A stretch of 30,653 nt of DNA from Ignavibacteria bacterium (GTDB lineage: Bacteria; Elusimicrobiota; Endomicrobiia; PHAN01), in the NCBI GenBank assembly GCA_041694835.1, contig JBGFRZ010000013.1:1-30653 (forward strand), read 5' to 3'. This document shows, one piece after another, positions 209-26,262 of the stretch; position 1 is the first letter of the stretch, and each line of letters begins with the position of its first letter. The notes beneath the pieces were generated by a model, which did no database searches, was not told the origin of the DNA, and saw nothing but the letters and a program-made list of their open reading frames with translations. A program made the translations under genes and the position numbers.

Positions 209-3200
209 ATGAAGATAAAAATTAGAACCCTCCCCTTCTTCCCCTACTACATACTACATGCTATTTTCTTGCTTCTTGCCCTATCTACTATCTACTACCT
301 GCTACCTGCTAAATTACACGCCGACTGGTGGGTGGAAAATTCTACCGCTCATTTTTCCGACGGCTTTTTTTTCCGCACCACATCTACCGTTCAAACGCCT
401 GCTTTGTCCCTCAGAAGAGTTGACGACTGGTATCAAGTAGCTCAATCCACGTGGCTCAATCGCAAGCCAATCAAAATATCAAATCCTGGCGGCGCTTTGA
501 CGCAATATCAACTGCAACTAACCATAGACACTTCTGGCTACATTAGCGCCGGCAAAATGCGTTCGGACGGAGCGGATATAAGAATAACCGACGAGGACGG
601 CAAAACGTTGCTCCCTTATTGGATAGGGATTTCCACTACTTTGCTATCGACAAGCCAGACAACGCCTATATTGGTAAAAATCCCGAATATTGGCGCCACG
701 AGCGAAAAGTATATATACTTCTATTTCAACAATCTCAGCACGGGAACCTCTTTGTCTAACAGGGTTGCCGTCGATGATTTGTACGAGGACTGGGAAACAG
801 GAACGATAAATATGGCTAAATGGACGCTTGGCGGGGCAAGAGGTGCGTGGCCATACGACGCTGATTTGTTTAAGATAACCGTCTCTTCTAAGTATGAAGG
901 AAATTACGCCGTCAGGTCGGGAACGATAAATCACACCCAGAACACATTTATAGAGACGACATTGAATCTTGAGATGTCTGCAAGGGTCTCGTTTTGGTGG
1001 GCATGTTCAGTTGAACCTCTATACGACAATTTTATATTTACGATAAATGGGGCTCAACCCTCGGGTGGCGCGGCGATAAACGGCGAGGTGAGGTGGAAAT
1101 TAGAGACATTTGATTTACCACAGGGCGCCGTTACTTTAAGATGGCAGTATCAGAGGGACAGCGGTGGAGATGGCGGGTTAAATCTTACATGGCTGGATTT
1201 TATCAGTGTGCGGAAACATGCCGCATCCCCTCCAACGCTTGAATACAGACCAAACGAAGATTTCGTGGCAGGGGGAATACACACCTCTGGTTATTATCTC
1301 TCCGGTGTGTTTGATATGGGGGGAGAGAACTCCATTATTTACAGGGCGTCGTGGACGGCGACTACCCCGCCCGGAACGGGTGTGAGCATAGATTACAGGA
1401 GACACAATACATGGTTTCCCATACAAAGCGGGACGATAACATGGACCGCGAATCTGACAAATGGCGGGGTATTGAGCGGGCACTACGGAAGATTTATTCA
1501 ATACAGAGCAAACTTAACTGGGCCGGGGACAACAACGTCCGCTCTTGTTGAAATCTCTTTTGATTACAGCAAAGTTCCAATGCGGCCGTCGGGTTTTACG
1601 GGCGTTGCGGTTTCATCAACCGCCATAAGATGGGGGTGGACAGACAACTCGAATCCTCCGTTCAACGAGGAGAGCGGTTTCAGGATTTATTCCGGAACGC
1701 GAACCATACCAACATCCCCCGAGGGCTTTATCAATGACACGGCGGGATTGCTGTATGAGATACCGGCAAATGTTACCTCATACATAGAATACAATCTTTT
1801 GCCAAACACACTTTATAACCGATATGTGGTTGCATTCAACCCCAATGGGGGCAACGCTTCTTCGCGTCTTTCCGACGGCTTACTGCTTCCCGTAGGGGTA
1901 ACGACTTTTGCGCTTGTGCCCGTGGTAAACTCCGAAGTGGCTTTTTACGCCTCTGACGCCGACAAAACAGCCCGCATTGTCAGTTATATGTCTATCCCCG
2001 CAACGACACACCTTACACATTCCACTTTTAACTTTACAAGCAATATATATTCAACTGGTCCGGGTAAAGCCGCTTATTACAGAGTCGTATGGTCGACGCT
2101 CCCGACACACACATGGTTACATGCAGAAACATTATGGTTCGCGCCTACGAATTATTTGTGGAATGATTTTTATTCAGCATTTGACGAGGCAAAGCCGCAG
2201 ATTCCTATGTGGAGTCGTTTTAATTCTGAATCGTGGTATTTTCATATTATGTCATATAATAGCGGTGATGTTCCTTCCGCTTCAAGAACTTTAGGTCCTT
2301 ACTTTTTTAACGGCGCCCCCGCCCAAATTACAAACCTCGTCGCCGAACCGAACAACCTTCAGGAAGGAGCGGTAAATCTGTCATGGACGGCACCGACCGC
2401 CAACTCCACATTCACAAACATTACGGGGGGAAGATATGTCGTGAGATGGTCACCAAGTATTATAGTGACTGATGCCGCTTTTGACACATCGCCTGGTGTA
2501 ACACTATCCACGACTACTATTGCCTCAAGCAAAGAGTCGCTGCTCATTACGGGGCTAACTCCAGGCAACACATTCTGGTTTGCTATTAAAACCGCCGATA
2601 GCGAGAATAACTTTTCACCTATCTCGACAAATACAATAATTACAAATACGAGAACCACAGCGGCAAAAGTTGCAAGAATTACATTTATCACTCCGCCAAA
2701 AACTACAGAAGTTGGCGCTCCGACATCTATAATTACTTTAGAGGCGCAAAATGCCGCCGGCCAGCCGTTACGACTTTTTAATCCGCAGAATGTTAATTTA
2801 TACTCCACTTCCGGGCTCGGTGAGTTCTCTTTAGACGGAGTGAATTTCGGCATAAGTTTTGTCAACATTCCACAGGGACAAACACAAGCAAATTTTTACT
2901 ACAGAGATTTACAATCGGGCAGTCCTACGCTCACCACCGACGAATCTCCAGATGCAGGGTGGATTGCGGGAACTCAACAACAAACTATTTTGCCGGCTAA
3001 AGCAGTCAAATTTGTTTTGAATCACGATGGTGCCGGTTCCATAGGAATAGACGAAAATCTTATTATTAACGCCAACGACGGCATTAACGTAAATAACATT
3101 TCTACTGATTATCAGGGTGGTATTATTTCGCCGGCGACTCACCCGGGGATTTCGGTTGTTCCGTCCACACATATGTACACCACATCAGATGCCGGCACGA

Positions 3201-6200
3201 GGCAGTTTATAATGAGAAATAATTTGTTCTTCGCAGGTCCCGTGGTTGTTTCCGTAAGAGAAGTCATTGAGCAGAATTACAGGGCGGTGTTTTCAATAGG
3301 AAACAGGGCATGGGCTGTGGCAGATGAAGGTATAATTAAAAAAACAGTCGATAGCGGGGACCAGTGGTTTGCACAGAAATATTCTACAGGCGCTGCAAAC
3401 GGGCTCTTTGGCGTTCATACTCCTGACGGCGAAAACATTTTTGTTTCAGGCGTTGGGGGAATGATTCACATAAGCACAAATTCCGGGACATCCTGGTTTT
3501 CAAGAGCGACGGGTGTTAGCGAGCAATTAAACGACATATTCTTTGTGAACACATCGACGGGATATGCCGTCGGCAACTCGGGCAGGGTTGTAAAATCAAC
3601 TTCTTCCGGCGATACATGGACTAACCTTGGACAACGCACCGGCAATCCGCAATTAAACTCAGTTTATTTCTTGAACGCTTCAACCGGATTTGTGGCGGGC
3701 GCCGGGGGAAATATTTTCAAAACTGCCGACGGTGGCTCTTCTTGGAGCAGTATACCTGCTGGTGTCACTGATGAACTCCGAAAAATAATTTTTACCGATG
3801 CCAATAACGGACATATTGTAACAGGAGCGGGAAGAATTTTAAGAACAACCGACGGTGGCAACACATGGACATCGCAAACACCAACCGCTAACGCCCTGCA
3901 CTCTGTATCTTTTATCGATTCTTCAAGAGGCATTGTGGTCGGCGACAGAAACACTATTTTAAGAACCACCGATGGCGGGGCAACATGGATTTTTGTCAGT
4001 TCTCAACCAACGGGACAGTTTTACGGCGTAACTCATTTTTCTCCAAGCATTGCTGTCGCCGTGGGAGAAAGGGGTTCAATTCATAGAACTTCCGACGGGG
4101 GCTCGACATGGAACGAAGTTTTTATGTCGGGAATTTCCTCAGAGATGAGATGGAACGGCTTGGTTTCTACTATTACCCCGGTTGCCACAGAACTTGTGCA
4201 GGGGAAGGCAAACCAGCCGGTTTTCAGAATGGGGCTTTGGAACCTCTATGGGGGTTCATCTTGGATAAATAGGATGACCTTTTCAAGAACGGGTTCGGCG
4301 AGTAATGTCGATGTCTCGGCGGTGAGGGTTTATATAGACAGAAACGGGAACAGGGTTTTTGATACGGGTGACGAGCCTCATCTTGGTGATTCATGGTTCG
4401 ATAGTGCCAATGTCGCCAATGTTAACTTCGCCGAGCGGCTCATTACGGGGACAACCGTCCATTTCTTCGTAACCTATAGTTTGACTCCGACAGCTCCCAT
4501 AGGCCAGACACTCGGAGCGCGGCTCGATTTTGGATGTGTCTGGGCTTCTGCTGCGGGCATCGCTTTTTCAAGAAATAATCTTCCTTACGATTTTATACCG
4601 GTTGAAATTATCCCGAGTTCTTGCACCGTCAGAATGACGATTACCAATCTAACTCCCCCGACAGCAAAACAAGGGACAAAAGATGTTTTACTTTCATCTT
4701 TCAGTATGCTCACCGACATAGGCAGAACGCCGTTTCAACGGCTCAGAGTCGACAGAATCGGAATCAATACGACCGACGAATCCATAGAGAGAATCAATCT
4801 TTACAGAGACGAGATAATATCCGCGAATCTTGTTTCTTCCGCCGCTTTTTCAGGAGGCGTCGCACTTTTAAGTATTCCCCAGGACCCACTAAAGCGGTAT
4901 CCTTTTGTAGATATTGACAACCGGACCACCGCTTATTACTTTCTCACAGCGAACATATCTCCCACCTCACTGGTTTCAACTGATGTAGAAGATGTGACTT
5001 TCGGCATAACGACGCGACTTGCCACAACCTATTTCACGCTTGATTCGGAAGGCGCAAACGGGATAGTCGTAATCCCCTCAACACCGGCGTTCAATTCGGG
5101 ACTAATAAAACTGTTAGTCGCGTTTGATACGGTTTTAGTAAATCCGATTATCGCAAGTATTCCCGTCTTAAGACAGTCGGACAAAGTGGCGTTTCTTCCT
5201 CTTAGAATGTCGCTTGATGCCAACATCGCCAATTGGACGAAAATCAGGATTGACCGGCTTGGGACATCGCTTGATTCAGATATTGCAAATGTTCATATCG
5301 CCAGAGACATAAACGGCAATGGGCAGTTTGACGACGGCACCGATACAGTTGTCGGAAGTGGAAGATTTTCTAATGGAGTCTCCGACATTGTCTTTCCTAA
5401 CCCTGAGATACTTGACAGGGCACTCCCTGCTCACGCCACTTATTTTATCGTCTGTGAAATTTCAAAGAGAGCGACTGTGGGAGCCACTTTAGGTCTGCGA
5501 CTCGCAAACACTTCGTATATAACATTGGCGGGTGTTGATATCGTCTCGCCCGTCCAATTTCCAATTAATTCTGAAACCGCTACAATCGCCGACTATCCCG
5601 ATGTCGTAACGGCAAATATTAGAACAATTGCCCCTCGCGACGCTACCGTTATGGAAAAAAATGCGCCGCTCCTTTCCCTGGAACTTTTAGCATTTTGCGA
5701 TGCAACATTAAGGCGGGTCACTATTTCGCTAGAGGGCTCAGCTTCCCCGGAGAATGTTCTCGCTGCGAAAATTTATCTGGACGCAGACAACAACACTTTA
5801 TTCTCACCTGTTTCCGACACTCTTCTGGGCAGCGGGACATTTAGCGGCGATGGCAGAGCCACAATTGACCTGACTGTGCCACTGACGGTATTTGATACCA
5901 CGAGAAGAATATTTGTCGTCTATGACTTTAACGAACACGCCCCACCTGGTAGAACCGTTGGGGCAGGCATTGATTCTACAGGATTAGAATACAATGCGCC
6001 AAATACGAGCCATAATTTTGGATATGTCCGTTCGTCGATGCTCAATCTCCTTGACAAAAGAACCCCGACTCTTGCGAACGTGAAGTTCCACATAGATAAT
6101 CCGTCGGGCGCGGAAGTTGTTGCCGGCAGAAAGACATATTTTATAAATGTGAATTCAAGGATTGGTTTCAACTGGGAATCAGTGGCGCTTAACGGCGTAA

Positions 6201-7045
6201 GAGATATTGGATACGCCATAGCGACTTTTGATTTTGTCTCATCTACGCAGACACCAGATGTGAGCGGATGGAGGACGACGACCTCAAGGGAAGGAGCGTT
6301 CGACAATCTCAATTTAAGGCACAACAACAGATATTTTCTATGGTTCAGGGTAACAAGTACTGATAATTTTGAAAGGTTCAACACTTTTGAGGCGAGGGTT
6401 GACCTTACACCTCCCCCTCCGCCCGAAAAACCGACAACAACAGCGGGTGCAAGTTCTCCTTCAGTATCGGGACAAACAATTCCCGCCGGCTACTGGGTAT
6501 CGTGGCCGCCCGTAACGGACGGCGAATCCGGCATTCTTTATTACGAACTCTCTGAAAGGGTTGGGACGGGTATGTGGGTTGTCGTTGGAACCGCGACGGC
6601 GACGGAGTATTTTATAGATAGTGCCGCGCCGTCGGAGTTTTATTACTATCGCGTTCGCGCGAAAAACCTTGCCGGAACATGGAGCGCATATTCGTTGCCT
6701 TCTTTAGTCGCATTTCTTTCGCCACCCGCCAAACCCTTAGACAAACTTTCGACATATCCAAATCCGTTCGATTCAAGAAGGACTGAATGCAACATTGTAT
6801 ATATATTGAATCAAAACGCCAAAGTTGATTTGAGAATATACGACCTTTTCGGACATCCTGTGCGTCAGTGGAATTTTGATACCGGCGCGCATGGCGGCGC
6901 CATGGGTCTTAACGAACTTAAATGGGACGGCACCGACGAAAACAACAGGAAAGTCGCGATGGGGCTCTATATTTTGTCTGTTGAAATTACCACGCCCGAC
7001 GCTCAAAAGACAAGAAAGAGATGGAAAATCGGAGTAATACATTAG
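209..7045 (+). CDS. Giant secreted/surface protein: DUF2341-like domain, FN3 domains, BNR/Ycf48-like beta-propeller, repeated Ig-like domains and a C-terminal T9SS/FlgD-Ig-like sorting domain
   Basis: 2278-aa ORF. Signal peptide ends ...AKLHA. MRSDGADIRITDEDGKTLLPYWI is DUF2341-like. FN3-like segments include LSWTAP and YYYRVRAKN. Many [ST]xDGGxTW Asp-box repeats. C-terminus YPNPF...IYDLFGHPVR...WDGTDENNRKVAMGLY. Confidence 0.88.
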   Translation: MKIKIRTLPFFPYYILHAIFLLLALSTIYYLLPAKLHADWWVENSTAHFSDGFFFRTTSTVQTPALSLRRVDDWYQVAQSTWLNRKPIKISNPGGALTQYQLQLTIDTSGYISAGKMRSDGADIRITDEDGKTLLPYWIGISTTLLSTSQTTPILVKIPNIGATSEKYIYFYFNNLSTGTSLSNRVAVDDLYEDWETGTINMAKWTLGGARGAWPYDADLFKITVSSKYEGNYAVRSGTINHTQNTFIETTLNLEMSARVSFWWACSVEPLYDNFIFTINGAQPSGGAAINGEVRWKLETFDLPQGAVTLRWQYQRDSGGDGGLNLTWLDFISVRKHAASPPTLEYRPNEDFVAGGIHTSGYYLSGVFDMGGENSIIYRASWTATTPPGTGVSIDYRRHNTWFPIQSGTITWTANLTNGGVLSGHYGRFIQYRANLTGPGTTTSALVEISFDYSKVPMRPSGFTGVAVSSTAIRWGWTDNSNPPFNEESGFRIYSGTRTIPTSPEGFINDTAGLLYEIPANVTSYIEYNLLPNTLYNRYVVAFNPNGGNASSRLSDGLLLPVGVTTFALVPVVNSEVAFYASDADKTARIVSYMSIPATTHLTHSTFNFTSNIYSTGPGKAAYYRVVWSTLPTHTWLHAETLWFAPTNYLWNDFYSAFDEAKPQIPMWSRFNSESWYFHIMSYNSGDVPSASRTLGPYFFNGAPAQITNLVAEPNNLQEGAVNLSWTAPTANSTFTNITGGRYVVRWSPSIIVTDAAFDTSPGVTLSTTTIASSKESLLITGLTPGNTFWFAIKTADSENNFSPISTNTIITNTRTTAAKVARITFITPPKTTEVGAPTSIITLEAQNAAGQPLRLFNPQNVNLYSTSGLGEFSLDGVNFGISFVNIPQGQTQANFYYRDLQSGSPTLTTDESPDAGWIAGTQQQTILPAKAVKFVLNHDGAGSIGIDENLIINANDGINVNNISTDYQGGIISPATHPGISVVPSTHMYTTSDAGTRQFIMRNNLFFAGPVVVSVREVIEQNYRAVFSIGNRAWAVADEGIIKKTVDSGDQWFAQKYSTGAANGLFGVHTPDGENIFVSGVGGMIHISTNSGTSWFSRATGVSEQLNDIFFVNTSTGYAVGNSGRVVKSTSSGDTWTNLGQRTGNPQLNSVYFLNASTGFVAGAGGNIFKTADGGSSWSSIPAGVTDELRKIIFTDANNGHIVTGAGRILRTTDGGNTWTSQTPTANALHSVSFIDSSRGIVVGDRNTILRTTDGGATWIFVSSQPTGQFYGVTHFSPSIAVAVGERGSIHRTSDGGSTWNEVFMSGISSEMRWNGLVSTITPVATELVQGKANQPVFRMGLWNLYGGSSWINRMTFSRTGSASNVDVSAVRVYIDRNGNRVFDTGDEPHLGDSWFDSANVANVNFAERLITGTTVHFFVTYSLTPTAPIGQTLGARLDFGCVWASAAGIAFSRNNLPYDFIPVEIIPSSCTVRMTITNLTPPTAKQGTKDVLLSSFSMLTDIGRTPFQRLRVDRIGINTTDESIERINLYRDEIISANLVSSAAFSGGVALLSIPQDPLKRYPFVDIDNRTTAYYFLTANISPTSLVSTDVEDVTFGITTRLATTYFTLDSEGANGIVVIPSTPAFNSGLIKLLVAFDTVLVNPIIASIPVLRQSDKVAFLPLRMSLDANIANWTKIRIDRLGTSLDSDIANVHIARDINGNGQFDDGTDTVVGSGRFSNGVSDIVFPNPEILDRALPAHATYFIVCEISKRATVGATLGLRLANTSYITLAGVDIVSPVQFPINSETATIADYPDVVTANIRTIAPRDATVMEKNAPLLSLELLAFCDATLRRVTISLEGSASPENVLAAKIYLDADNNTLFSPVSDTLLGSGTFSGDGRATIDLTVPLTVFDTTRRIFVVYDFNEHAPPGRTVGAGIDSTGLEYNAPNTSHNFGYVRSSMLNLLDKRTPTLANVKFHIDNPSGAEVVAGRKTYFINVNSRIGFNWESVALNGVRDIGYAIATFDFVSSTQTPDVSGWRTTTSREGAFDNLNLRHNNRYFLWFRVTSTDNFERFNTFEARVDLTPPPPPEKPTTTAGASSPSVSGQTIPAGYWVSWPPVTDGESGILYYELSERVGTGMWVVVGTATATEYFIDSAAPSEFYYYRVRAKNLAGTWSAYSLPSLVAFLSPPAKPLDKLSTYPNPFDSRRTECNIVYILNQNAKVDLRIYDLFGHPVRQWNFDTGAHGGAMGLNELKWDGTDENNRKVAMGLYILSVEITTPDAQKTRKRWKIGVIH

Positions 7046-7077
7046 AGCACAAGAGCACAAGGCACAAGAGCACAAGG
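7044..7077 (+). repeat. AGAGCACA tandem array (left arm around four-helix-bundle gene 1)
   Basis: agagcaca agagcaca aggcaca agagcaca agg; the reverse-complement array is at 7458-7547. Confidence 0.9.
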
Positions 7078-7079
7078 TT

Positions 7080-7433
7080 ATGGAAGGGAAAGGGTATAGA
7101 AAATTACTTGTTTGGCAAAAGGCGGATGAGTTGGCAGTGGAAGTTTACATCATTACGAAAAAATTTCCGAGGGATGAAATATATGGCATAACATCGCAAT
7201 TGAGAAGAGCAACATTATCAATTCCCACAAACATTGTGGAAGGTTACGGTAGACAGAGTAGAAACGAGTTAAGACAGTTCATCAATATCGCCTTGGGTTC
7301 ATTAGCGGAGACGGAATATCTTTTGGATTTTTCTTTAAGATTAAAGTACCTTACGATTGGGGAACATGCTAAATTGTATAGTTTACATACGGAAGTCGGA
7401 AAAATATTATGGAAGTTCTACAAATCCTTATGA
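7080..7433 (+). CDS. Four-helix-bundle protein (23S rRNA-IVP / S23-like, Avd-related family)
   Basis: Motifs YRKLLVWQKA, FPRDEIYGITSQLRRATLSIPTNIVEG, FINIALGSLAETEY. Confidence 0.93.
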   Translation: MEGKGYRKLLVWQKADELAVEVYIITKKFPRDEIYGITSQLRRATLSIPTNIVEGYGRQSRNELRQFINIALGSLAETEYLLDFSLRLKYLTIGEHAKLYSLHTEVGKILWKFYKSL

Positions 7434-9076
7434 CTTATGCACTTAAGCACTTGCATTCTTGTGCTCTTGTGCTCTACCGCTCTACTGCTCTACTGCGATA
7501 CTGCTTTGCTGCTCTTGTGCTCTTGTGCTCTTGTGCTCTTGTGCTCTATGGTGGCGGGCGGCCCGGGGCTTTCCTCTCATGGGGTGCAGGCGCAAGACAT
7601 ATGGCGCTTGGCAACACCGCTGTGGGAATTACCGAAGACGCATTTTCTCCTTATTACAACTCCGCTTCGCTCGGATTCATAGAGCGCAAAGAGCTCGGCA
7701 CTTTCCATGCAATGCTCTGGGAAGATACTTCGTATAGTTATGTGGGCTATGTCCACCCGCTCCTTGATAAAGGCGCGCTTGGTTTCAACTTGATACGGCT
7801 CCATTCGGGAGCCGCTGTTATGACCGACGAAAACAATAGACAGGTCGGCGATTTTTCGTTTCAGCAGTTGGCTTTTGGCGCCGGTTACGGAAGAACCGTA
7901 TACAAAAATCTCTCGCTTGGCGCCATTGGCAGATTATTCAATACGAGTTTACACAATGCGTCAAACAACAACTTTACCGTCGACGCCGGTCTTACTTTGA
8001 AAGTAAACGATGTTTTGTCCATCGGTGCCAATTTTCAGAATATTTTCGCTCTGACCATGGGCGAGACATCCGACGAACTTCCCATTGTTTTCAGAATAGG
8101 AGGCGGATACAGAATTTTTGACGACCGGCTTAAACTCTCACTTGATGTAGGCAGAAACGGCGGCGAGCATCTCATCGATTATCATTCAATGGGACTTGAA
8201 AGCCGTCTGAACGAATTCTTCGCCCTGCGTCTCGGCAGAAATCCGCAGGAAATCACCGGCGGTTTCGGGCTAAGTTTCAAGAATTTCAATCTCGACTATG
8301 CTCTGGCATTGCACTATCTCGGCTTCTCGCACAGAGCGTCATTTAACTTTAGGTTCGGACGCCCGACGGCAGAGTTAAGAGAAATTTTGAAGAAGTCGGC
8401 CGCGGCCGTCAAACCGCTCGAAACCGGAGTTGTTCCGGGGGTTGAGGCGGCGGCGGAAGAACGGATGCAGTTGTTTCAGGAAAACTATCAAGGCGCCATA
8501 AATATGTATCGTCGAGGGCTCTTTATGATTGCCCTTGACAGATTCAAAAATGCTGCTGACATCGACCCGGATGATCCCGAGGTTCCGATATTTATAGAAC
8601 GACTCAATATGATTACCCCGATAGTGCCTCAGAACATGGCAACAGACAGAATCAGTGAACTTATGAGGCGGGGTATCGTCTATTTTATCGAAGGACACGG
8701 CCGAAGTGCGGCAATGACGCTTGCATACGCTTATTCGCTTGAGCCGGACAATTTTACGCTTATGCGTCTTCTGGGAAGAGTCGAGGAAAAAACCGGACAC
8801 AAAATCGACCGTTCACGCCCGGCGAGCGGACTTACCATCGTAGACCAGAAACACTATGAGAGTTTGATTGCCTTCAGAAAAAGGGATTATGCCCATACCA
8901 TCCGACTTTGCGAGGAGATTTTACTCCTTGAGCCCAACGACACTTTGGCGCTTAAACGACTCGGTTCCGCATTTTTTGCCATGGGCGAAAGAGACAAAGC
9001 AAAACGGATGTGGGAAAGAGCCCTTGAGATTGAACCAAATCCGAGGATAGAGAGGCTTATAAGGCAGATAAAATGA
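7430..9076 (+). CDS. PorV/PorQ-like (UPF0164/FadL-type) outer-membrane beta-barrel with C-terminal TPR domains
   Basis: GAFLSWGAGARHMALG...EDAFSPYYNSASL matches the family N-terminal motif. Alternating beta-strands end in DYA...LGFSHRASFNFRFG, followed by TPR-like helices (ALKRLGSAFFAMGERDKAKRMWERALEIEP). Start placed at the ATGA overlap at 7430; the ORF track starts at 7409. Confidence 0.82.
   Translation: MTYALKHLHSCALVLYRSTALLRYCFAALVLLCSCALVLYGGGRPGAFLSWGAGARHMALGNTAVGITEDAFSPYYNSASLGFIERKELGTFHAMLWEDTSYSYVGYVHPLLDKGALGFNLIRLHSGAAVMTDENNRQVGDFSFQQLAFGAGYGRTVYKNLSLGAIGRLFNTSLHNASNNNFTVDAGLTLKVNDVLSIGANFQNIFALTMGETSDELPIVFRIGGGYRIFDDRLKLSLDVGRNGGEHLIDYHSMGLESRLNEFFALRLGRNPQEITGGFGLSFKNFNLDYALALHYLGFSHRASFNFRFGRPTAELREILKKSAAAVKPLETGVVPGVEAAAEERMQLFQENYQGAINMYRRGLFMIALDRFKNAADIDPDDPEVPIFIERLNMITPIVPQNMATDRISELMRRGIVYFIEGHGRSAAMTLAYAYSLEPDNFTLMRLLGRVEEKTGHKIDRSRPASGLTIVDQKHYESLIAFRKRDYAHTIRLCEEILLLEPNDTLALKRLGSAFFAMGERDKAKRMWERALEIEPNPRIERLIRQIK
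7458..7547 (+). repeat. TGTGCTCT tandem array (right arm), lying inside the PorV-like signal peptide
   Basis: cttgtgctcttgtgctct at 7458-7475 and about four ctcttgtg units at 7510-7547; translates as SCALVLLCSCALVL. Confidence 0.9.
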
Positions 9077-9328
9077 CAGAGATGAGAGGTGAGAGATGAG
9101 AGAACAGAGCATAGAGCATAGAAGACAGAGCGCAAGAGCACAAGGGCACAAGTCAGAGGACAGAGAACAGGGGACAGGGGGGAGAGATGAGAGGACAGAG
9201 AAGATGGTGGCTCGTGGCTCGTGGCTCGTGGCTCGTTTCCGCCAGTCACCAGTCACCAGTCACCAGTCACTATTGCCTATTGCCTATTGCCTATTTTTTA
9301 CTATTGCCTATTGCCTATTGCCTACTGC
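9077..9328 (+). repeat. Mosaic of heptamer tandem repeats (GATGAGA, GAGCATA, GAGCACA, ACAGAGG, GTGGCTC x4, CACCAGT x4, TATTGCC x6)
   Basis: Read directly. A purine-rich half is followed by a pyrimidine-rich half that overlaps the 5' end of the FliF-FliG ORF. Confidence 0.9.
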
Positions 9329-10727
9329 CCGTCTTTACGCTCAGACATCTATAATGGAAGAAAAATTGCTCTTCGAGAAGTCCATACAGGATCGCGCGGA
9401 GAAAATCGTTGAGAAGATAACCGGCTCAAAAGAAATGATAGTTCTTACCACCGTGGAACTTGAATATGAGGAACAACCACAAGAAGAGAAGCCCGTTTTT
9501 CCCGGCGCTATGAGAGCCGAAGAGGACTATCTTCCCGGGATAACATATTCTTATGTTCCTTTCGACACTCACAGCATGGGCAGGCGGAACATAATCATAA
9601 GAAGAATAACGGTTCTGATAACTCTCCCGCTTGAAACCGCAGAAGCCGTCGTTGAAAGAATCAAAAAAGAAACCAATGAACTTTTAGGTTTAAATCCCTT
9701 GAGGGGGGATATTATAAACATCGCCAGAATAGCGTTTTCGAGGCCCGAAAGAAATCTCGCCACTTACTTTCAGGATTATTCGCAGCATATTTACTGGCTA
9801 TTTCTGGCGCTTCTTCTGACTTTGTTTTTGTTCGGCCCGCTCAGGCACTTTTTTAAGACGGTAGTAAAAGCTATGGAGTTGCGCATTGAAGCCGATACAA
9901 GGATAAGAAGCGCCGAAGCGTTAGGAGTGGGAGCGGGCGGTCCCGGAGTTCCTTTCGGAGGCGGACCAATCGAGTTGACGCTTGACAGAAAAAGACCGCA
10001 ACTGAAGGAAGGAGAACAAAATATCATGAAGAGATTTGGTTTTATCAACGATTCAAATTTGAAGAATTTGCTGTATCTTTTAAAGAAAGAGCCCCCCGAT
10101 ACGATTGCTGTCGTGATAAGTTATCTCCCGCCCCACATGGCCCCTCAAATTTTAGGTTCATTGCCGCCAACGATACAGGCGGATGTGGCGATGAATTTAG
10201 CATCCGTCAAGATACTCGATCCAGAGCAGGTCGACGCCATTGAAAAAGATATAAAAACAAAAATCGACTATCTGCTCGGCGGAGAGGAAAATCTCATGCA
10301 GCTTCTTGACAACGTGGACAGAGATGCTCAGGAAAACATACTTAAAACCCTTGAAATGGAAAACCCGGTTTTGGCGGCAAAATTGAAGAGCCATATGTTT
10401 TTCTTTGAGGATTTAGTCGTTCTTGAGAAGACATCTGTCCATAAGGTGCTCAGAGAATGCCAGAGAAGGCAGATTTCAATGGCTCTTGCCCTGAAAAACG
10501 CATCCGATGAGCTCAAAGTTAAAATTATGGACACGCTCACGGAGGGTGCAAAAGCCATGCTCGCCGAACAAATCGACCTTTTGGGAGAAGTGGCCGAAAA
10601 AAGGCTCATGGAAGAAAGAAAGCTCGTCGAAGCGGTGGTAAAAGAACTTGAGAAAAACGGCGATATTGTTATCGACAGAACGAAAAAACAAAAACGGGAT
10701 GATTTCGATTTAGTGACGAGAAAGTAA
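9204..10727 (+). CDS. FliF-like ring-building motif, TM helix and FliG middle/C-terminal domains in one fusion protein
   Basis: FEKSIQDRAEKIVEKITG..IVLTTVELEY and IRRITVLI...ELLGLNPLRGDIINIARIAF resemble FliF RBM3. TM segment IYWLFLALLLTLFLFG. EPPDTIAVVISYLPP is an EHPQ-like FliG_M motif; MFFFEDL (MFXF) and MALALKNAS mark FliG_C. Start uncertain: the ORF is open from 9096, with an in-frame ATG at 9204. Confidence 0.82.
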   Translation: MVARGSWLVARFRQSPVTSHQSLLPIAYCLFFTIAYCLLPTARLYAQTSIMEEKLLFEKSIQDRAEKIVEKITGSKEMIVLTTVELEYEEQPQEEKPVFPGAMRAEEDYLPGITYSYVPFDTHSMGRRNIIIRRITVLITLPLETAEAVVERIKKETNELLGLNPLRGDIINIARIAFSRPERNLATYFQDYSQHIYWLFLALLLTLFLFGPLRHFFKTVVKAMELRIEADTRIRSAEALGVGAGGPGVPFGGGPIELTLDRKRPQLKEGEQNIMKRFGFINDSNLKNLLYLLKKEPPDTIAVVISYLPPHMAPQILGSLPPTIQADVAMNLASVKILDPEQVDAIEKDIKTKIDYLLGGEENLMQLLDNVDRDAQENILKTLEMENPVLAAKLKSHMFFFEDLVVLEKTSVHKVLRECQRRQISMALALKNASDELKVKIMDTLTEGAKAMLAEQIDLLGEVAEKRLMEERKLVEAVVKELEKNGDIVIDRTKKQKRDDFDLVTRK

Positions 10728-10730
10728 TTT

Positions 10731-10756
10731 AGTGGCTTGTGGCTGGTGACTCGTGG
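10731..10756 (+). repeat. GTGGCTY heptamer array (left arm around four-helix-bundle gene 2)
   Basis: agtggcttgtggctggtgactcgtg matches the reverse complement of 11108-11132 at 22/25 positions. Confidence 0.85.
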
Positions 10757-10767
10757 ATAGAGGGAAA

Positions 10768-11136
10768 ATGATTAAGAGTTACAAAGAGCTTGAAGTGTGG
10801 CAGTTGGGGGTAAAGTTGGTTAGTGAGATATGCCGACTATCAGAAAAACTTCCGGCGAAAGAAATATATGGGCTGGTTTCACAGATAAGGAGAGCGAGCT
10901 TATCAATCCCCTCTAACATAGCGGAAGGTCAGCAGAGACATTATCGCAAGGAGTTTGTGCAGTTTTTATATCAGGCATTGGGTTCACTTGCAGAACTTGA
11001 GACGCAACTCATCTTGGTTGATGAAGTTTATGGGGTTAAACTGCCGAACAGTGAAATTGTGGATAAACTCGGCAAAAAACTAAGGTCTCTGATCAAATCC
11101 CTCGAATCACGAGCCACAAGCCACGAGCCACTTTAA
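10768..11136 (+). CDS. Four-helix-bundle protein (23S rRNA-IVP / S23-like, Avd-related family)
   Basis: IKSYKELEVWQLG, LPAKEIYGLVSQIRRASLSIPSNIAEG, FLYQALGSLAELETQL. ATG at 10768 follows agaggg. The C-terminal RATSHEPL is encoded by the repeat arm. Confidence 0.93.
   Translation: MIKSYKELEVWQLGVKLVSEICRLSEKLPAKEIYGLVSQIRRASLSIPSNIAEGQQRHYRKEFVQFLYQALGSLAELETQLILVDEVYGVKLPNSEIVDKLGKKLRSLIKSLESRATSHEPL
11108..11132 (+). repeat. RAGCCAC heptamer array (right arm)
   Basis: cacgagccacaagccacgagccact. Confidence 0.85.
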
Positions 11137-11153
11137 TAAAAAAAGGAGTTTTT

Positions 11154-11921
11154 ATGGATTTAATGACATTCGTTGGAATTATTCTCGGCGGAGCGGCGGT
11201 TTATTACACAATGCATGTCGGCGGTATTGCCGCTCTTCTTTGGAACCTGCCGGCCGCGGTTCTGGTATTCGGTGGAACGCTCGGCGCGACGTTTGTGACA
11301 TATCCTTTCAATCTCATAGTAAAAGTGCCCAAGGCCATGCTCATGCTTTTTTTCCCGCCGAAAAGAAACACGCCCCAATATACTATTAATTTACTTGTGC
11401 AGCTTGCCGAGAAAGCCAAAAAAACCGGCATCGATTCACTGCAAGACGAATTCGTCCGAATAAAAGATACGTTTCTGGAAGACGGACTTCAGATGGTATT
11501 AGACGGTATGGACCCTAATGTCGTCAGAGAAAACCTAGATAAAGAAATCGTTTTCTTAAGAAGAAGACACTCTCAGGTTACGGCTATATTTAAAAGCATG
11601 GGCGCTTACGCTCCCATCTTCGGACTCCTTGGGACTCTCATCGGAGTTGTTCAGGTGCTTCAGAATCTGACTGACCCTGCTTCATTGGGCGCATCGATGG
11701 CGGTGGCTGTCACAACGACATTCTATGGCATATTCGGAACGAATTTTCTGTTTTTGCCCGCCGCCGGGAAACTCTCCTCGCATACTGAGCAGGAGGTTCT
11801 TCTCAAAGAGGTGGCGATTGAAGGAATCCTCTCGATTCAGCAAGGAGATATCCCCTTGATAGTTTCAAGAAAACTTCATGCGTATCTTGCATATAAGACC
11901 AGAAAAGAGAAGAAAAAATGA
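11154..11921 (+). CDS. motA: MotA/PomA-family stator protein
   Basis: MDLMTFVGIILG start, VFGGTLGA, APIFGLLGTLIG, AVAVTTTFYG, FLPAAGKL, EGILSIQQG; RBS aaggag upstream. Confidence 0.95.
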   Translation: MDLMTFVGIILGGAAVYYTMHVGGIAALLWNLPAAVLVFGGTLGATFVTYPFNLIVKVPKAMLMLFFPPKRNTPQYTINLLVQLAEKAKKTGIDSLQDEFVRIKDTFLEDGLQMVLDGMDPNVVRENLDKEIVFLRRRHSQVTAIFKSMGAYAPIFGLLGTLIGVVQVLQNLTDPASLGASMAVAVTTTFYGIFGTNFLFLPAAGKLSSHTEQEVLLKEVAIEGILSIQQGDIPLIVSRKLHAYLAYKTRKEKKK

Positions 11922-12055
11922 GTAGAGCAGCAGAGGACAGAGGACAGAGAACAGAGGTCAGGGAAAAACCTCTCACCCCTCACCTCTCGCCTCTCATCTC
12001 TGACCTCTCACCTCTGTTTGCTATTCTCTATCTTTATCTCTACCTACTATCTATT
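11922..12055 (+). repeat. Gene-less purine/pyrimidine heptamer repeat cassette
   Basis: ACAGAGG units followed by CTCTCAC and CTATCTA units; the 33 bp at 11931-11963 are identical to 22566-22598. Confidence 0.85.
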
Positions 12056-12056
12056 T

Positions 12057-12163
12057 ACCCCGCACCACAGAAAGCACCGTCTGTAAAGACGGGGAATGAA
12101 GGGGAACGGTTTTCCCGCAGGGTTATTCCACAAAGCCACGCCTGTAAAGGCGTGGTGCGGGGT
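12057..12163. mobile_element. Miniature palindromic element (12-bp terminal inverted repeats, two GTAA-loop hairpins), possibly IS200/IS605-derived
   Basis: Termini accccgcaccac / gtggtgcggggt. Hairpins ccgtct-gtaa-agacgg (12077-12092) and ccacgcct-gtaa-aggcgtgg (12136-12155), each beginning at or just after an aaagc motif. Confidence 0.5.
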
Positions 12164-12174
12164 TTACTAAAAAT

Positions 12175-12825
12175 ATGGCATTGCTAAAATTTTTCAGAGA
12201 CAGACGTTCAAGAACCCGCGACGAAGATGGTGCCGGCAGCATGATATGGCTCACTGTTTATTCCGACATGATGACGAATCTGATGATGTTTTTTTTAATG
12301 CTTTTTGCACTTACGCGTATGTCGTCGTCCGTCAGAGAAGATGTTATGCACGCCTTGCAGGAACAATTTAGTGACAAAGAGGTTGAAAAAACTCAGGCGC
12401 AGGAAGACAGCAAAGAAAAGATGGAAGAGTTAAAGAAAATCGCATATGTGGAAGAAACCGAGTCAAGAATACAAATCACGCTTCCAGCCCCCGTGTTATT
12501 TGATATAGGCAAGGCGGACATTAAAGAAGGGACAAAACATGCGCTTTCCGACTTGGCGACCACTATCAAGGGGTCGAAGTATCCGATAATAATAGAAGGA
12601 CATACCGACAATGTGCCGATAACGGGCGGACAATTCAGGTCCAACTGGCAACTCTCGGCGGCGCGCGCGTTTGCCGTATTGAATTATTTTATAGAAATCG
12701 AAAAAATTTCTCCCGGGCGACTTTCTGCTCTCGGCTACGGAGAATATCGCCCGGTTGCATCCAACGAGACAGAGGATGGCCGCGCACAAAACAGACGCAT
12801 CGAAATAATACTAGTAAAAAAATAG
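12175..12825 (+). CDS. motB: MotB/PomB-family stator protein 1 (OmpA-like peptidoglycan-binding domain; Asp retained)
   Basis: TM WLTVYSDMMTNLMMFFLML (Asp31); LFDIGKA, IEGHTDNVP, NWQLSAARA, GYGEYRP, NRRIEI. Confidence 0.93.
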   Translation: MALLKFFRDRRSRTRDEDGAGSMIWLTVYSDMMTNLMMFFLMLFALTRMSSSVREDVMHALQEQFSDKEVEKTQAQEDSKEKMEELKKIAYVEETESRIQITLPAPVLFDIGKADIKEGTKHALSDLATTIKGSKYPIIIEGHTDNVPITGGQFRSNWQLSAARAFAVLNYFIEIEKISPGRLSALGYGEYRPVASNETEDGRAQNRRIEIILVKK

Positions 12826-12910
12826 TAGATAGTAGAGATAGAGTTGGGAGATAAGAGTTTAGAGTGTAGAAATGTCCGGTAGTGTCTCTAAACTCTAAAC
12901 TTATCAATTT

Positions 12911-13615
12911 ATGAAAAAAGAGAACCCCGAAATCCAAATTGGCTCCCACGGAAGATGGGGAAATGCCACCGTCGAATCCGATACTGAAAGCGAGTCGCTG
13001 TGGCTTGTGCCTTACGGCAATATGATGACGGTTTTGATGGTTTTATTTTTGATTCTTTACTCGTTTGCGTACTTGGGAGACACAAGCGGCTATGAAAAAA
13101 TAGTTACAAGACTCCAGAGCGAGTTCGCAAAGCTCGACAGAAGAAAAGCCGAAAAATTCGAGCCCAAACAGCAAGAAGCCCATGTCGCAGAAGAGATTGC
13201 GGATTACTTTTCGGAAAAGGGCCTGGACAAGATAGCGAATGTCGACATAAACGCACAGAGAATCAGAATTCAACTTGCAACCCCCGTTCTTTTCGGTTCG
13301 GGGGAAGCGGCGCTCAAAACCGATTCAGTCGCCATCCTTAACGAAATAGCAACTCTTATCAGGAAAGTGCCCAACAAAGTCATAATTGAAGGTCATACTG
13401 ACAACATACCTATAAAAACCGCAGAGTATAGTTCAAACTGGGAACTCTCCGTTGACAGAGCCATAAATGTCATAAACTATTTCGGCTCAATAGGTATTCT
13501 TCCTGAAAGATTTGCCGCCGCCGGCTACGGTGAATTTCAGCCCGTTTCTTCTAACGACACCCCCGAAGGTCGTTCCAAAAACAGACGAATCGAAATAATA
13601 ATCGTAAGAACATAG
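12911..13615 (+). CDS. motB: MotB/PomB-family stator protein 2 (conserved Asp replaced by Asn)
   Basis: TM WLVPYGNMMTVLMVLFLIL (Asn37); LFGSGEA, IEGHTDNIP, NWELSVDRA, GYGEFQP, NRRIEI. Confidence 0.9.
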   Translation: MKKENPEIQIGSHGRWGNATVESDTESESLWLVPYGNMMTVLMVLFLILYSFAYLGDTSGYEKIVTRLQSEFAKLDRRKAEKFEPKQQEAHVAEEIADYFSEKGLDKIANVDINAQRIRIQLATPVLFGSGEAALKTDSVAILNEIATLIRKVPNKVIIEGHTDNIPIKTAEYSSNWELSVDRAINVINYFGSIGILPERFAAAGYGEFQPVSSNDTPEGRSKNRRIEIIIVRT

Positions 13616-17248: not shown

Positions 17249-17322
17249 GGGCGTGTAGCTCAGTTGGTTAGAGTACCACGTTGACATCGTGGGGGTCACA
17301 GGTTCGACTCCTGTCACGCCCA
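17249..17322 (+). tRNA. tRNA-Val(GAC)
   Basis: Acceptor gggcgtg/cacgccc, D arm agctcagttggttagag, anticodon arm ccacg-ttGACat-cgtgg, T loop ttcgact; CCA not encoded. Confidence 0.96.
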
Positions 17323-26023: not shown

Positions 26024-26096
26024 GGGCCTATAGCTCAGCTGGTAGAGCACCTGACTTTTAATCAGGGTGTCGAAGGTTCGAATCCTTCTAGGCTCA
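26024..26096 (+). tRNA. tRNA-Lys(TTT)
   Basis: Acceptor gggccta/taggctc, anticodon arm cctga-ctTTTaa-tcagg, T loop ttcgaat. Confidence 0.96.
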
Positions 26097-26189: not shown

Positions 26190-26262
26190 GCCCCCATCGT
26201 CTAGAGGCCTAGGACACAGCCCTTTCAAGGCTGCGGCAGGGGTTCGAATCCCCTTGGGGGTA
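26190..26262 (+). tRNA. tRNA-Glu(TTC)
   Basis: Acceptor gccccca/tgggggt, D arm gtctagaggcctaggac, anticodon arm cagcc-ctTTCaa-ggctg, T loop ttcgaat. Confidence 0.95.

Follow-up and report, generated by a model that had tools for sequence, protein, structure and literature searches.

What do a flagellar rotor and its stator do in a bacterium without a flagellum? The question is raised by a gene cluster from the phylum Elusimicrobiota, in which a FliG-bearing rotor protein, MotA and two MotB proteins are encoded beside an outer-membrane barrel and a giant surface protein. To our knowledge, neither FliG nor the MS-ring has been described outside the flagellum. In the literature searched, neither the fusion nor the cluster is described, and there is only a passing mention of orphan motAB, flbD and fliG in the phylum; their role in flagellum-less Elusimicrobiota, including magnetotactic ones, is called unclear in preprint 10.1101/2022.07.08.499144. 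The window, that is, the whole stretch of DNA that was analysed, is 30,653 nucleotides long, and a second, paralogous cluster is found on another contig of the same genome. We infer the function of the cluster from sequence comparison. A working, non-flagellar use of the rotor-stator core is very probable in our judgement, and the region as a whole is best explained, a reading that we favour with some reserve, as one of two paralogous non-flagellar rotor-stator modules typical of Elusimicrobiota.

The preliminary description placed a CTD protein, a barrel, a FliF-FliG fusion, MotA and two MotBs between positions 209 and 13615, and all of these genes were found there, co-oriented on the plus strand (Table 1). 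It also held the window to lack FliM/N, export gate, rod, hook and flagellin genes and PorK/L/M/N, and no further flagellar or T9SS core gene was matched among the 19 ORFs scanned.

Table 1. Features of the rotor-stator cluster and its neighbours in the window
Feature	Position	Strand	Basis
Giant surface protein, 2278 aa	209..7045	+	DUF2341, fn3, BNR/Sortilin-type propellers, C-terminal sorting-type domain (Pfam, NCBIfam)
C-terminal domain of giant protein, last 109 aa	6716..7042	+	T9SS type-A CTD-like; 13-tail alignment, model
23S-rRNA-IVP-type four-helix-bundle gene, 117 aa, inserted	7080..7433	+	PF05635 125 bits, TIGR02436 115.9 bits
PorV/PorQ-family outer-membrane barrel with periplasmic helical/TPR tail	7409..9076	+	NF033709, TPR families
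FliF RBM3-like/FliG fusion (rotor protein), 543 aa	9096..10727	+	Pfam, PDB sequence match, fold matches
Second IVP-type four-helix-bundle gene, 127 aa, inserted	10753..11136	+	PF05635 109.8 bits
MotA, flagellar-type stator A subunit, 255 aa	11154..11921	+	MotA_ExbB + MotA_N
Word-repeat spacer with complementary arms	11918..12187	.	Sequence inspection; no family match
MotB1, stator B subunit	12175..12825	+	Plug + OmpA-like peptidoglycan-binding domain, YSDM
MotB2, paralogous B subunit	12911..13615	+	Plug + OmpA-like domain, YGNM

The cluster is interrupted by two IVP-type cassettes and a repeat spacer, which the earlier account had passed over, as it had the TPR tail of the barrel. The IVP-type genes were rejected as machine parts, since none stands between the giant-protein and barrel genes, or between those of FliF-FliG and MotA, in related loci; the sole match there to the 7080..7433 gene is a 70-aa piece upstream of the L019 barrel gene, and an identical copy of this gene lies on contig C52. 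An 89-aa ORF at 11918-12187 was rejected as a gene, being word-repeat DNA with no Pfam or NCBIfam match. The 1115-aa protein encoded after MotB2 was not counted as part of the system, having no Pfam, NCBIfam, PADLOC or Atlas match and no homologue in any related locus. At the Rfam gathering score, the window contains three tRNAs and no riboswitch ahead of the cluster, and a promoter and terminator scan, with counts near those of shuffles (28 vs 21.2; 24 vs 16.6), was not used as evidence. Word-repeat DNA additionally encodes the signal peptide of the giant protein, and repeats encode the N-terminal hydrophobic stretch of the barrel. Together with the two inserted cassettes, the repeat-derived signal peptides of the window's copy could reflect relaxed constraint in this genome.

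At the centre of the cluster, a single protein carries a FliF RBM3-type ring-building domain on the periplasmic side of one membrane helix and, on the cytoplasmic side, the middle and C-terminal domains of FliG. A repeat-encoded signal or first transmembrane stretch (to about aa 82) precedes the RBM3-like domain (aa 84-220) and the membrane helix (about aa 232-258), which are followed by a Gly-rich linker, FliG_M (324-391) and FliG_C (418-526). Both FliG domains are Pfam matches (PF14841, 57.3 bits, cut-off 25; PF01706, 86.8 bits, cut-off 23.3), and the PDB sequence search aligned the FliG part with T. maritima FliG-MC (1lkv) at 135.6 bits. FliG_N is missing. Its model, PF14842, reached 17.9 bits (cut-off 25) over the middle domain, and its place is taken, according to Pfam and the orthologue alignment, by the membrane helix and linker; the full-length FliG model TIGR00207 scored 123.3 bits against a cut-off of 226.7 (NCBIfam). 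The EHPQ motif reads EPPD.

The FliF side of the protein is recognised through its fold. In a model of aa 84-262 (pLDDT 78.5), the periplasmic domain is arranged as alpha-beta-(loop)-beta-alpha-beta and is predicted to adopt the RBM3 ring-building fold: of the PDB fold matches, 18 reach E<=0.001, each of them to a FliF entry, and 17 of these entries are solved MS-ring, S-ring or RBM3 structures (best 7cg7_A, 2e-5). The rmsd of these matches is high (13-17 A), owing to the low confidence of a collar-like insertion at model residues 42-82. YscJ_FliF (PF01514), the N-terminal part of FliF with RBM1 and RBM2, had no match genome-wide at E<=1, and YscJ_FliF_C (PF08345) had none in the window rotor and 23.6 bits in the paralogue (cut-off 23.8). 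Therefore, of the FliF-FliG fusion first described, the FliG_M and FliG_C domains are present, whereas the FliF portion is reduced to an RBM3-like domain, recognised by fold and without PF01514.

The host genome is 97.2% complete, and each flagellar family searched gave control matches in four flagellated genomes. In this 97.2%-complete genome, no match was obtained for the export gate proteins FlhA (PF00771) and FliP (PF00813), the rod and hook family Flg_bb_rod (PF00460), flagellin (Flagellin_N, PF00669) or the C-ring switch proteins FliM and FliN (FliMN_C, PF01052). With YscJ_FliF also unmatched, the expectation that no flagellum is encoded elsewhere held genome-wide. Because the export gate, rod, FliM/N and flagellin are absent, the genes of the cluster do not complete a flagellum. 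With FliG_N, FliM and FliN missing and the EPPD motif in place, the cytoplasmic ring would be unlike any known C-ring, which speaks against the reading that we favour.

The stator proteins have the domain set of a flagellar stator, which is MotA_ExbB with MotA_N and a MotB plug with an OmpA-like domain. MotA matches MotA_ExbB at 89.3 bits and MotA_N at 29.3 bits (Pfam), as well as the PDB MotA 9lu9 (1.5e-52); its scores of about 193-205 bits against the NCBIfam MotA/PomA/MotP models lie below the equivalog cut-offs (204.6 vs 237-340), and TolQ gives 18 bits. MotB1 and MotB2 each carry MotB_plug and OmpA (Pfam) and score 157.5 and 172.5 bits with the flagellar MotB/MotD models, the MotD cut-off of 283 being unreached (NCBIfam). 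The membrane helix of MotB1 bears the canonical channel Asp (YSDM). In MotB2, this conserved Asp is replaced by Asn, in the window (YGNM) and in 7 of 11 orthologues, with Asp retained in L010, L018, L019 and L029. In E. coli MotB, the change of the channel Asp to Asn reportedly abolishes function, another point against the favoured reading.

Residues at the presumed MotA-FliG interface were compared as well. Positions of FliG are given in what we take to be E. coli numbering, reached by way of a T. maritima alignment. Lys occupies the site of E. coli MotA R90 in 29/31 sequences, and Glu the site of FliG D288 in 36/36; both paralogue types retain this Glu in the FliG torque helix as well as the MotA Lys opposite it. 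In the second pair, both partners are neutral, with Gln at the site of MotA E98 (26/31) and never Arg or Lys at that of FliG R281. At R281, Gly, Asn or Glu is found, and at D289, Gln, Glu, Ile or Ser. These classical MotA-FliG charge pairs are named as in PMC12505986.

Such a stator might also be imagined at rest. Here the FliF-FliG ring would be a docking platform without rotation, and MotAB would act as force transducers or tethers joining the inner membrane, peptidoglycan and barrel, for envelope stability or sensing in a Tol-Pal-like manner. The OmpA-like peptidoglycan-binding domains kept in both MotBs agree with this, as do the loss of the channel Asp from MotB2 in many members and the histidine kinases or response regulators that often follow MotB2 in relatives (L011, L015, L016, L018); other 5:2 motors serve membrane stabilisation and import (PMC12204202). 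However, the Asp and plug of MotB1 are retained by all 12 sequences that span this part of the protein, among them that of the window, the MotA here is flagellar in type and has MotA_N, and the Glu-Lys pair conserved in both paralogue types is the torque interface. We regard the resting platform as unlikely.

A working rotor-stator module, which is the reading that we prefer, is joined in the window by the barrel and the giant protein. The barrel belongs to the PorV/PorQ family (NF033709, 118.1 bits, cut-off 90, aa 55-316; NCBIfam) and reaches none of the equivalogs (PorV 50.4, cut-off 250; PorQ 54.4, cut-off 220; PorV2 35.4, cut-off 325). Its tail, at about aa 345-555, is a conserved periplasmic helical/TPR region with invariant residues in an 18-sequence alignment. 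In this genome, the tail HMM finds only the window barrel and a paralogue on contig C84 (297 and 288 bits; next best 53 bits), and these two of the 14 PorV-family barrels both lie beside FliF-FliG genes. Full-length orthologues of the giant protein, at 34-40% identity, are encoded upstream of the barrel gene in five related loci (L010, L011, L016, L017, L018). In an alignment of 13 tails, its CTD has NYPNPFDSR near the start and KIGVIH at the end, at the very C-terminus, with scores of 24.8 bits for FlgD_ig (cut-off 27), 19.3 for TIGR04183 (cut-off 23) and 30.6 for the PorU tail. The model of this domain (pLDDT 94.6) has seven strands; its best fold match is a PorZ entry, PorU follows with a TMq of 0.70, and the FlgD Ig and generic Ig-like domains also match. 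As far as gene neighbourhoods and homology tell, the motor is associated with a single TPR-tailed barrel and the giant protein that belongs to it, and a functional coupling of the rotor-stator core to the two is probable, with considerable room for doubt.

The wider export machinery can be placed against this association. About 19 CTD-like tails are present in the genome, where the PorU model is matched through its C-terminal CTD part alone, in 19 places, with no PorU body. Barrel genes recurrently stand after a gene for a CTD protein, as do 8 of the 12 that tblastn found in this genome. A SprA-like protein of 1697 aa on contig C72 gives four collinear weak TIGR04189 matches (53.8, 46.8, 30.2 and 23.2 bits; cut-off 200), with no Pfam family and no PDB sequence match, and its gene adjoins lptF/lptG rather than the motor. 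The preliminary description proposed that this lineage may use the rotor and stator in place of GldLM to drive export or movement of CTD-tagged surface proteins. Read as a T9SS-like export pathway, FliF-FliG/MotAB would replace GldL/GldM (PorL/PorM) as the proton-driven engine exporting all CTD-tagged proteins. The CTD-like tails, the 14 PorV-family matches and the weakly SprA-matching protein would suit that role, and so would the position of the motor genes beside a CTD protein and a PorV-like barrel; the GldL (TIGR03513) and GldM (TIGR03517) models had no match in the genome, but they were silent in the control genomes too and lacked a positive control, so this is weak evidence. Against it stands the distribution of the parts. 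PorV-family barrels occur in 146/151 sampled genomes of the phylum and the SprA-like protein in 58/61, including family f2 (barrels 40/45, SprA-like 17/19, FliG_C 1/45) and family f18 (45/45, 18/19 and 0/45). Since barrels and the SprA-like protein are near-universal, also in two well-sampled but FliG-poor families, the motor does not appear to be a general export engine. Only the two TPR-tailed barrels are tied to it, and the SprA-like gene lies away from it. The proposal is thus not borne out, and we consider it quite improbable; a narrower role, that of moving or handling a single specific surface protein, stays compatible with these distributions.

How well is the module conserved? There are 32 full-length rotor homologues, and the seven with an organism name are all Elusimicrobia or Endomicrobia; a profile of the periplasmic domain matched 239 representatives at E<=1e-10, with FliG-MC also present in 123 of the best 150. 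Among 13 window-type loci, MotA adjoins the fusion gene in 11, and these have MotB1 in every case and MotB2 in all 10 that are not cut short; the single genome without an adjacent MotA has two window-type MotA genes elsewhere. The TPR-tailed barrel is encoded directly upstream in 7/13, and the giant-protein orthologue is present in all five window-type barrel loci with enough upstream DNA. Housekeeping genes (def, fmt, DUF116, radical SAM) replace the barrel upstream of the fusion gene in 5/13, so the barrel-motor linkage is loose; the five genomes with a non-adjacent barrel all encode a TPR-tailed barrel elsewhere. For the other type, no barrel match was obtained in 3 of 21 loci (L026, L028, L029). 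The synteny expected at the outset therefore holds phylum-wide for the rotor and stator genes, whereas the barrel and CTD protein are linked in some loci and co-occur elsewhere in others.

FliG_C is found in 56 of 151 sampled Elusimicrobiota genomes, with up to six matches per genome, and FlhA in four; 52 have FliG_C without FlhA. Two old paralogue types exist, each with its own stator type, and FlbD (PF06289, 91.6 bits) is encoded ahead of the sister stator on contig C54. Frames are intact, and orthologous loci, 13 of one type and 21 of the other, share invariant motifs at identities of 41-75% and below. A quick tree groups the 36 fused FliGs in a single clan (SH-aLRT 100) and separates them from 41 canonical FliGs as well as from three of flagellated Elusimicrobiota; the tree took in three of the four canonical Elusimicrobiota FliGs, with G102 left out, probably by the length filter. 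In this tree, the fused FliGs do not arise from the flagellar FliGs of the phylum, which, with the intact frames, the invariant motifs, the multiple FliG_C copies and the two paralogue types with their own stators, makes it very improbable that the cluster is a decaying remnant of a lost flagellum with no present function, even though the phylum does have a few flagellated members and repeat DNA and cassettes have invaded the window cluster. Least credible is a Zorya-like anti-phage system built on MotAB homologues, since both MotBs match ZorB models (up to 83.5 bits) but score higher with the flagellar MotB/MotD models, MotA has no ZorA match, the fusion protein and barrel have no PADLOC match, and we know of no FliG or FliF parts in Zorya.

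Under the preferred reading, that of a conserved non-flagellar rotor-stator module, the fusion protein would assemble into a small ring like the MS-ring, its inner face bearing FliG. Ion flow via MotA5B2-type stators, whose axle is perhaps a MotB1/MotB2 heterodimer, would turn or load this ring through the Lys(MotA)-Glu(FliG) pair. The periplasmic face of the ring would work on the TPR tail of the barrel holding the giant protein, and the membrane potential would be used to move, position or remodel this single surface protein. Such an output would be nearer to adhesin movement in gliding than to general secretion. We put forward surface-protein movement or gliding as the output only tentatively. 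It is likewise speculative that the whole is a hitherto unrecognised envelope-spanning rotary machine, in which a minimal RBM3/FliG ring in the inner membrane, spun by the stators, drives the giant adhesin via the TPR tail as a new form of gliding or surface-protein transport.

If the conserved module is real, the flagellar torque generator can serve another output. If the rotary-machine reading is true, this would be the first natural flagellar rotor-stator core working without a type III export apparatus, which bears on the evolutionary assembly of the flagellar motor. The module is a test case for whether rotor and stator came before the export apparatus or survived after it, and it might account for the as yet unexplained motility of Elusimicrobiota that lack flagella, magnetotactic members among them. 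It also offers a small one-protein rotor for structural and biophysical work. Two natural experiments on 5:2 stator-rotor coupling are provided by the MotB pair, in which one member lacks the Asp, and by the second charge pair, neutralised in both partners.

Three known systems invite comparison. The flagellar motor is resembled in the FliG middle and C-terminal domains with the torque helix, the RBM3-type fold, MotA with MotA_N, MotB1 with its plug, Asp and OmpA-like domain, and FlbD before the sister stator on C54. Engineered FliF-FliG fusions form rings in Vibrio (PMC10941966); here, the fusion is natural and runs through a single membrane helix. Unlike the flagellum, the present system has no export gate, rod, hook, filament, FliM/N, FliG_N or FliF RBM1/RBM2, one of its two classical charge pairs is neutral on both sides, one of its two MotB paralogues lacks the Asp, and its genes lie beside those for an outer-membrane barrel and a giant surface protein.

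The T9SS and gliding machinery of Bacteroidota comprises the GldLM/PorLM motor, the PorV shuttle, PorP/SprF-type anchors and SprB-type adhesins. With it, the module shares an ion-driven motor of the 5:2 type whose genes accompany those of a PorV/PorQ-family barrel and of a giant protein with a CTD-like tail. In that machinery, GldLM powers both secretion and adhesin movement, according to PMC8986121, and the recurrent pair of CTD gene and barrel gene resembles the type-B CTD cargo with PorP-like anchors described in PMC9143113. In contrast to the T9SS, the motor here would be MotAB on FliG instead of GldLM, no GldL, GldM or PorU body was found in the genome, and the barrel falls far below the PorV/PorQ equivalog cut-offs and bears a TPR tail. 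Elusimicrobiota also lie outside the groups with a described T9SS, and the motor is missing from many genomes that keep the barrels.

The third system is the AglRQS-Glt gliding motor of Myxococcus, whose AglRQS is counted among motility motors in PMC12204202. Unlike the present module, the Agl proteins belong to a TolQR-like group. The system has no FliG/FliF-like rotor, and its Glt partners are unrelated to PorV-like barrels. AglRQS itself is made up of a MotA/TolQ-type channel and two different B-type subunits. It is in this make-up, a channel with two B-type subunits driving a trans-envelope complex that travels along the cell surface, that the Elusimicrobiota module, if it works as we propose, would resemble it.

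The reading that fits this cluster best is that of a non-flagellar rotor-stator machine, tied to a single tailed outer-membrane barrel and to the giant surface protein that goes with it. An ORF listing combined with family scans recovers the co-oriented run on the plus strand that the preliminary description had reported, and that observation is confirmed; two four-helix-bundle cassettes, a spacer and a TPR tail on the barrel are additions to it. The accompanying interpretation, that a FliF-FliG rotor and MotAB stand in place of GldLM to drive the export or movement of CTD proteins, is supported in part only. The intergenic gaps are 17-34 bases, with the exception of the spacer (253), the motB1-motB2 interval (85) and a 25-base overlap between the first cassette gene and the annotated start of the barrel.

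Features of the motor cluster and the tRNA genes of the window
Feature	Position	Strand	Basis or domains
Giant protein, 2278 aa	209-7045	+	DUF2341, fn3, BNR/Sortilin-type propellers
23S-rRNA-IVP four-helix-bundle gene	7080-7433	+	family scan
PorV/PorQ-family barrel, TPR repeats after	7409-9076	+	NF033709, 118.1 bits (cut-off 90), aa 55-316
FliF-FliG fusion protein, 543 aa	9096-10727	+	FliG_M and FliG_C at aa 324-526
Second four-helix-bundle gene	10753-11136	+	family scan
MotA	11154-11921	+	family scan
MotB1	12175-12825	+	plug and OmpA-like domain (family scan)
MotB2	12911-13615	+	plug and OmpA-like domain (family scan)
Three tRNA genes	17249-17322, 26024-26096, 26190-26262		

The C-terminal half of the fusion is, by its sequence, unmistakably FliG, with 135.6 bits in an alignment to the crystallised T. 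maritima FliG-MC; for the N-terminal half, Pfam gave no match. The orthologues share a layout of a short signal peptide or first transmembrane helix, a conserved domain of about 140 aa, a membrane helix bearing a FLFGP motif that is invariant in the alignment, and a glycine-rich linker. A fold model of residues 84-262, built on 26 sequences (pLDDT 78.5), runs alpha-beta-(low-confidence loop)-beta-alpha-beta and then into the membrane helix. At E<=0.001 it has 18 PDB matches, every one a FliF entry: 17 are solved structures of the MS-ring, S-ring or RBM3, and one is an integrative FliF-YlxF model; the rmsd of the match is high because the low-confidence loop occupies the position of the FliF beta-collar. 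A paralogue on C84, another contig of the source genome, reaches 23.6 bits on YscJ_FliF_C, where the cut-off is 23.8. FliG_N is not present in the fusion, which, given the RBM3-like fold and FliG-MC, is therefore read as a cut-down RBM3 tied to FliG-MC through a single membrane helix.

The fusion is conserved across Elusimicrobiota. A search for homologues brought 32 full-length relatives, of which the seven with a named organism all belong to Elusimicrobia or Endomicrobia; after them come ordinary FliGs of 330-370 aa, with about half of the query covered. Among species-representative genomes, 34 loci were recovered, 33 of them under Elusimicrobiota-type titles. The remaining locus, titled Thermodesulfovibrio sp., lies on a 3.7-kb contig of 30% GC whose DNA is 90.6% identical to an Endomicrobia contig over 3044 bases, and is therefore judged to be probably misbinned; these data do not establish spread to Nitrospirota. 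Searched against 1.84 billion representatives, the periplasmic-domain profile matches 239 at E<=1e-10, with FliG-MC also present in 123 of the best 150 matches, the rest being mostly short fragments. FliG_C occurs in 56 of 151 phylum genomes (45 of 63 genera); the frames that hold it are mostly 440-860 aa long, and a single genome may have as many as six matches. FlhA is found in four of the 151, all with FliG_C as well, thus leaving 52 genomes that hold FliG_C without FlhA.

Synteny divides the 34 loci into a window type (n=13) and a C84 type (n=21). The linkage of motor to surface genes, whose conservation in relatives the preliminary description had proposed to test, is present but loose in the window type: MotA adjoins the fusion gene in 11 of 13 loci, the tailed barrel lies directly upstream of it in 7 of 13, and a full-length orthologue of the giant protein (34-40% identity) is present in all five loci with enough upstream DNA. 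MotB1 follows MotA in 11/11, and MotB2 follows MotB1 in each of the 10 loci not cut short, L012 ending inside MotB1. One window-type locus is cut by a contig end, L010 has its stator genes on the opposite strand, and L017 has none nearby, with two window-type MotA genes elsewhere in its genome. Five of the 13 loci carry def, fmt, DUF116 and a radical-SAM gene upstream (by Pfam on L015, by ORF pattern on the other four), and all five of these genomes encode a window-type tailed barrel elsewhere (47-51% identity).

The source genome (1.9 Mb, 89 contigs, 97.2% complete) yields no genome-wide match to FlhA, FliP, FliM/N, YscJ_FliF, rod/hook or flagellin, with four flagellated control genomes positive each time, so that the earlier suggestion of a motor lacking a flagellum stands as far as these families reach. 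Its FliG_C genes number two, in the window and on C84, and its MotA_ExbB genes five, namely the window gene, a C54 pair, an ExbB-ExbD-TonB set and two others. In the C84 cluster, a small CTD-only protein and a PorV-like barrel that shares the window barrel's tail are followed by a FliF-FliG fusion extended by a C-terminal TPR and by three coiled-coil proteins, then by an fn3 protein that bears a type-B CTD, and then by a PorP/SprF-LysM protein. Tailed barrel and FlbD are each present in 17 of the 21 C84-type loci, a C54-type MotA lies downstream of the coiled-coil gene in 17/21, and in 17 related genomes a FlbD-MotA-MotB trio comes after the coiled-coil gene in a rotor cluster of the C84 type. 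In the source genome, FlbD (PF06289, 91.6 bits) and then a MotA-MotB pair stand isolated beside pyruvate phosphate dikinase at C54:30504-32207 (L006:4605-6308 in the excised locus). Given the frequency of C54-type stator and FlbD in C84-type loci, this set is probably the stator of the C84 rotor, detached here.

A quick maximum-likelihood tree of FliG-MC (80 rows, SH-aLRT support, midpoint root for drawing only) separates, by a branch of support 100, 36 fused FliGs from 41 canonical FliGs, chosen by likeness to the query, and from three canonical FliGs that flagellated Elusimicrobiota contribute. Within the fused FliGs, the window type (support 99) and the C84 type (support 85) each form a single group; long branches in the tree are flagged. 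The one conclusion taken from this tree is a single origin of the fusion followed by an early duplication.

The barrel side of the machine resembles type IX secretion. The C-terminal 100 or so residues of the giant protein score 24.8 bits on FlgD_ig, 19.3 on TIGR04183 and 30.6 on the PorU-model tail, all under curated cut-offs. Its last 109 aa, aligned with 12 other tails, carry NYPNPFDSR near the start and KIGVIH at the extreme end, and are modelled with seven strands (pLDDT 94.6); among the best PDB matches are a PorZ entry (9.9e-6), a PorU entry (TMq 0.70) and FlgD Ig domains, with a weaker match to the RemA CTD, and unrelated Ig-like domains match too. The PorU-model tail is found at 19 places in the genome, and the PorU model finds no sortase body genome-wide. 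Eight of 12 PorV-like barrels (tblastn) have such a tail on the same strand no more than about 1.5 kb upstream, and the order of cargo gene then barrel gene is therefore a general rule in this genome; the barrel most likely holds the protein of the neighbouring gene. A tail HMM finds the conserved periplasmic tail only in the two fusion-adjacent barrels (297 and 288 bits), the next match, at 53 bits, being generic TPR.

The proposal of a general CTD export engine replacing GldLM is weakened by distribution. PorV-family barrels are present in 146/151 phylum genomes, and a SprA-like protein in 58/61, mostly as a single match; the heavily sampled families f2 and f18 have both, with FliG_C in 1/45 and 0/45. 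Barrels and putative translocon are thus kept in lineages without FliG, where another engine may operate. In the source genome the SprA-like protein (1697 aa, C72:16156-21249; L005:4157-9250) directly follows lptF and lptG, gives four collinear weak SprA matches and no PDB sequence match, and may serve either as a T9SS-like translocon or in outer-membrane biogenesis. GldL and GldM models, searched without a positive control, have no match in the genome.

The window copy carries repeats and inserted cassettes. Both 23S-IVP genes sit between operon genes and leave the neighbouring frames unbroken, and a protein-identical copy of the first occurs at C52:36807-37157. An 89-aa ORF at 11918-12187, in the motA/motB1 interval, was rejected as a gene, being word-repeat DNA with complementary purine-rich and pyrimidine-rich arms; with its two small hairpins, this spacer resembles a cassette site that lacks its four-helix-bundle gene. 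Repeats of the kind that borders the cassettes also encode N-terminal hydrophobic, signal-peptide-like stretches in the giant protein (209-330), barrel (7409-7560) and rotor (9096-9344), where orthologues have ordinary signal peptides; similar stretches are matched on C62, C41 and C14 and at the N-terminus of the C84 PorP/SprF-LysM protein.

Downstream of motB2, four relatives (L011, L015, L016, L018) carry a histidine kinase, hybrid kinase or response regulator, and the matching window position is held by an orphan 1115-aa ORF (13862-17209, TTG start), in a stretch of reduced G+C (about 0.40). Pfam, NCBIfam and PADLOC place it in no family, the Atlas has no match and none of the 34 related loci has a counterpart; the ORF may be foreign DNA inserted between the motor cluster and tRNA/thrS.

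Most free-living Elusimicrobiota have been described, in the accessible text of the preprint 10.1101/2022.07.08.499144, as lacking flagellar structural genes yet holding motAB, flbD and fliG homologues of unclear role. No description of the fusion, tailed barrel or cluster was found in the accessible literature, including the accessible text of PMC12204202, and the main text of PMC12505986, as far as available, does not mention Elusimicrobia. In the machine proposed here, the fusion would form a ring, the ring would rotate, and the barrel tail would contact it; the biological output we can only infer.

In E. coli, MotA R90 pairs with FliG D288/D289, and MotA E98 with FliG R281 (accessible text of PMC12505986 and PMC7564593). 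The positions were transferred through alignments to solved MotA and FliG. With the E. coli numbers as provisionally assigned to aligned positions, Lys stands at the R90 position in 29 of 31 stator sequences, both types included, and Glu at the D288 position in 36/36 fusions, while the E98 position is Gln in 26/31 and the R281 position never basic. One charge pair kept and the other neutral on both sides is the sequence pattern to be expected of an interface that works and co-evolves. The channel Asp is always present in MotB1; in MotB2 the window and 7 of 11 orthologues have Asn at this position, whereas the other four orthologues keep Asp. To our knowledge, all known MotB/PomB proteins have an ion-binding Asp at this site. 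That the two MotBs are conserved as a pair suggests that they form a mixed axle or that one of them has a regulatory role. On the rotor side, the covalent link in the fusion would stand in for the docking of the FliF tail onto FliG_N.
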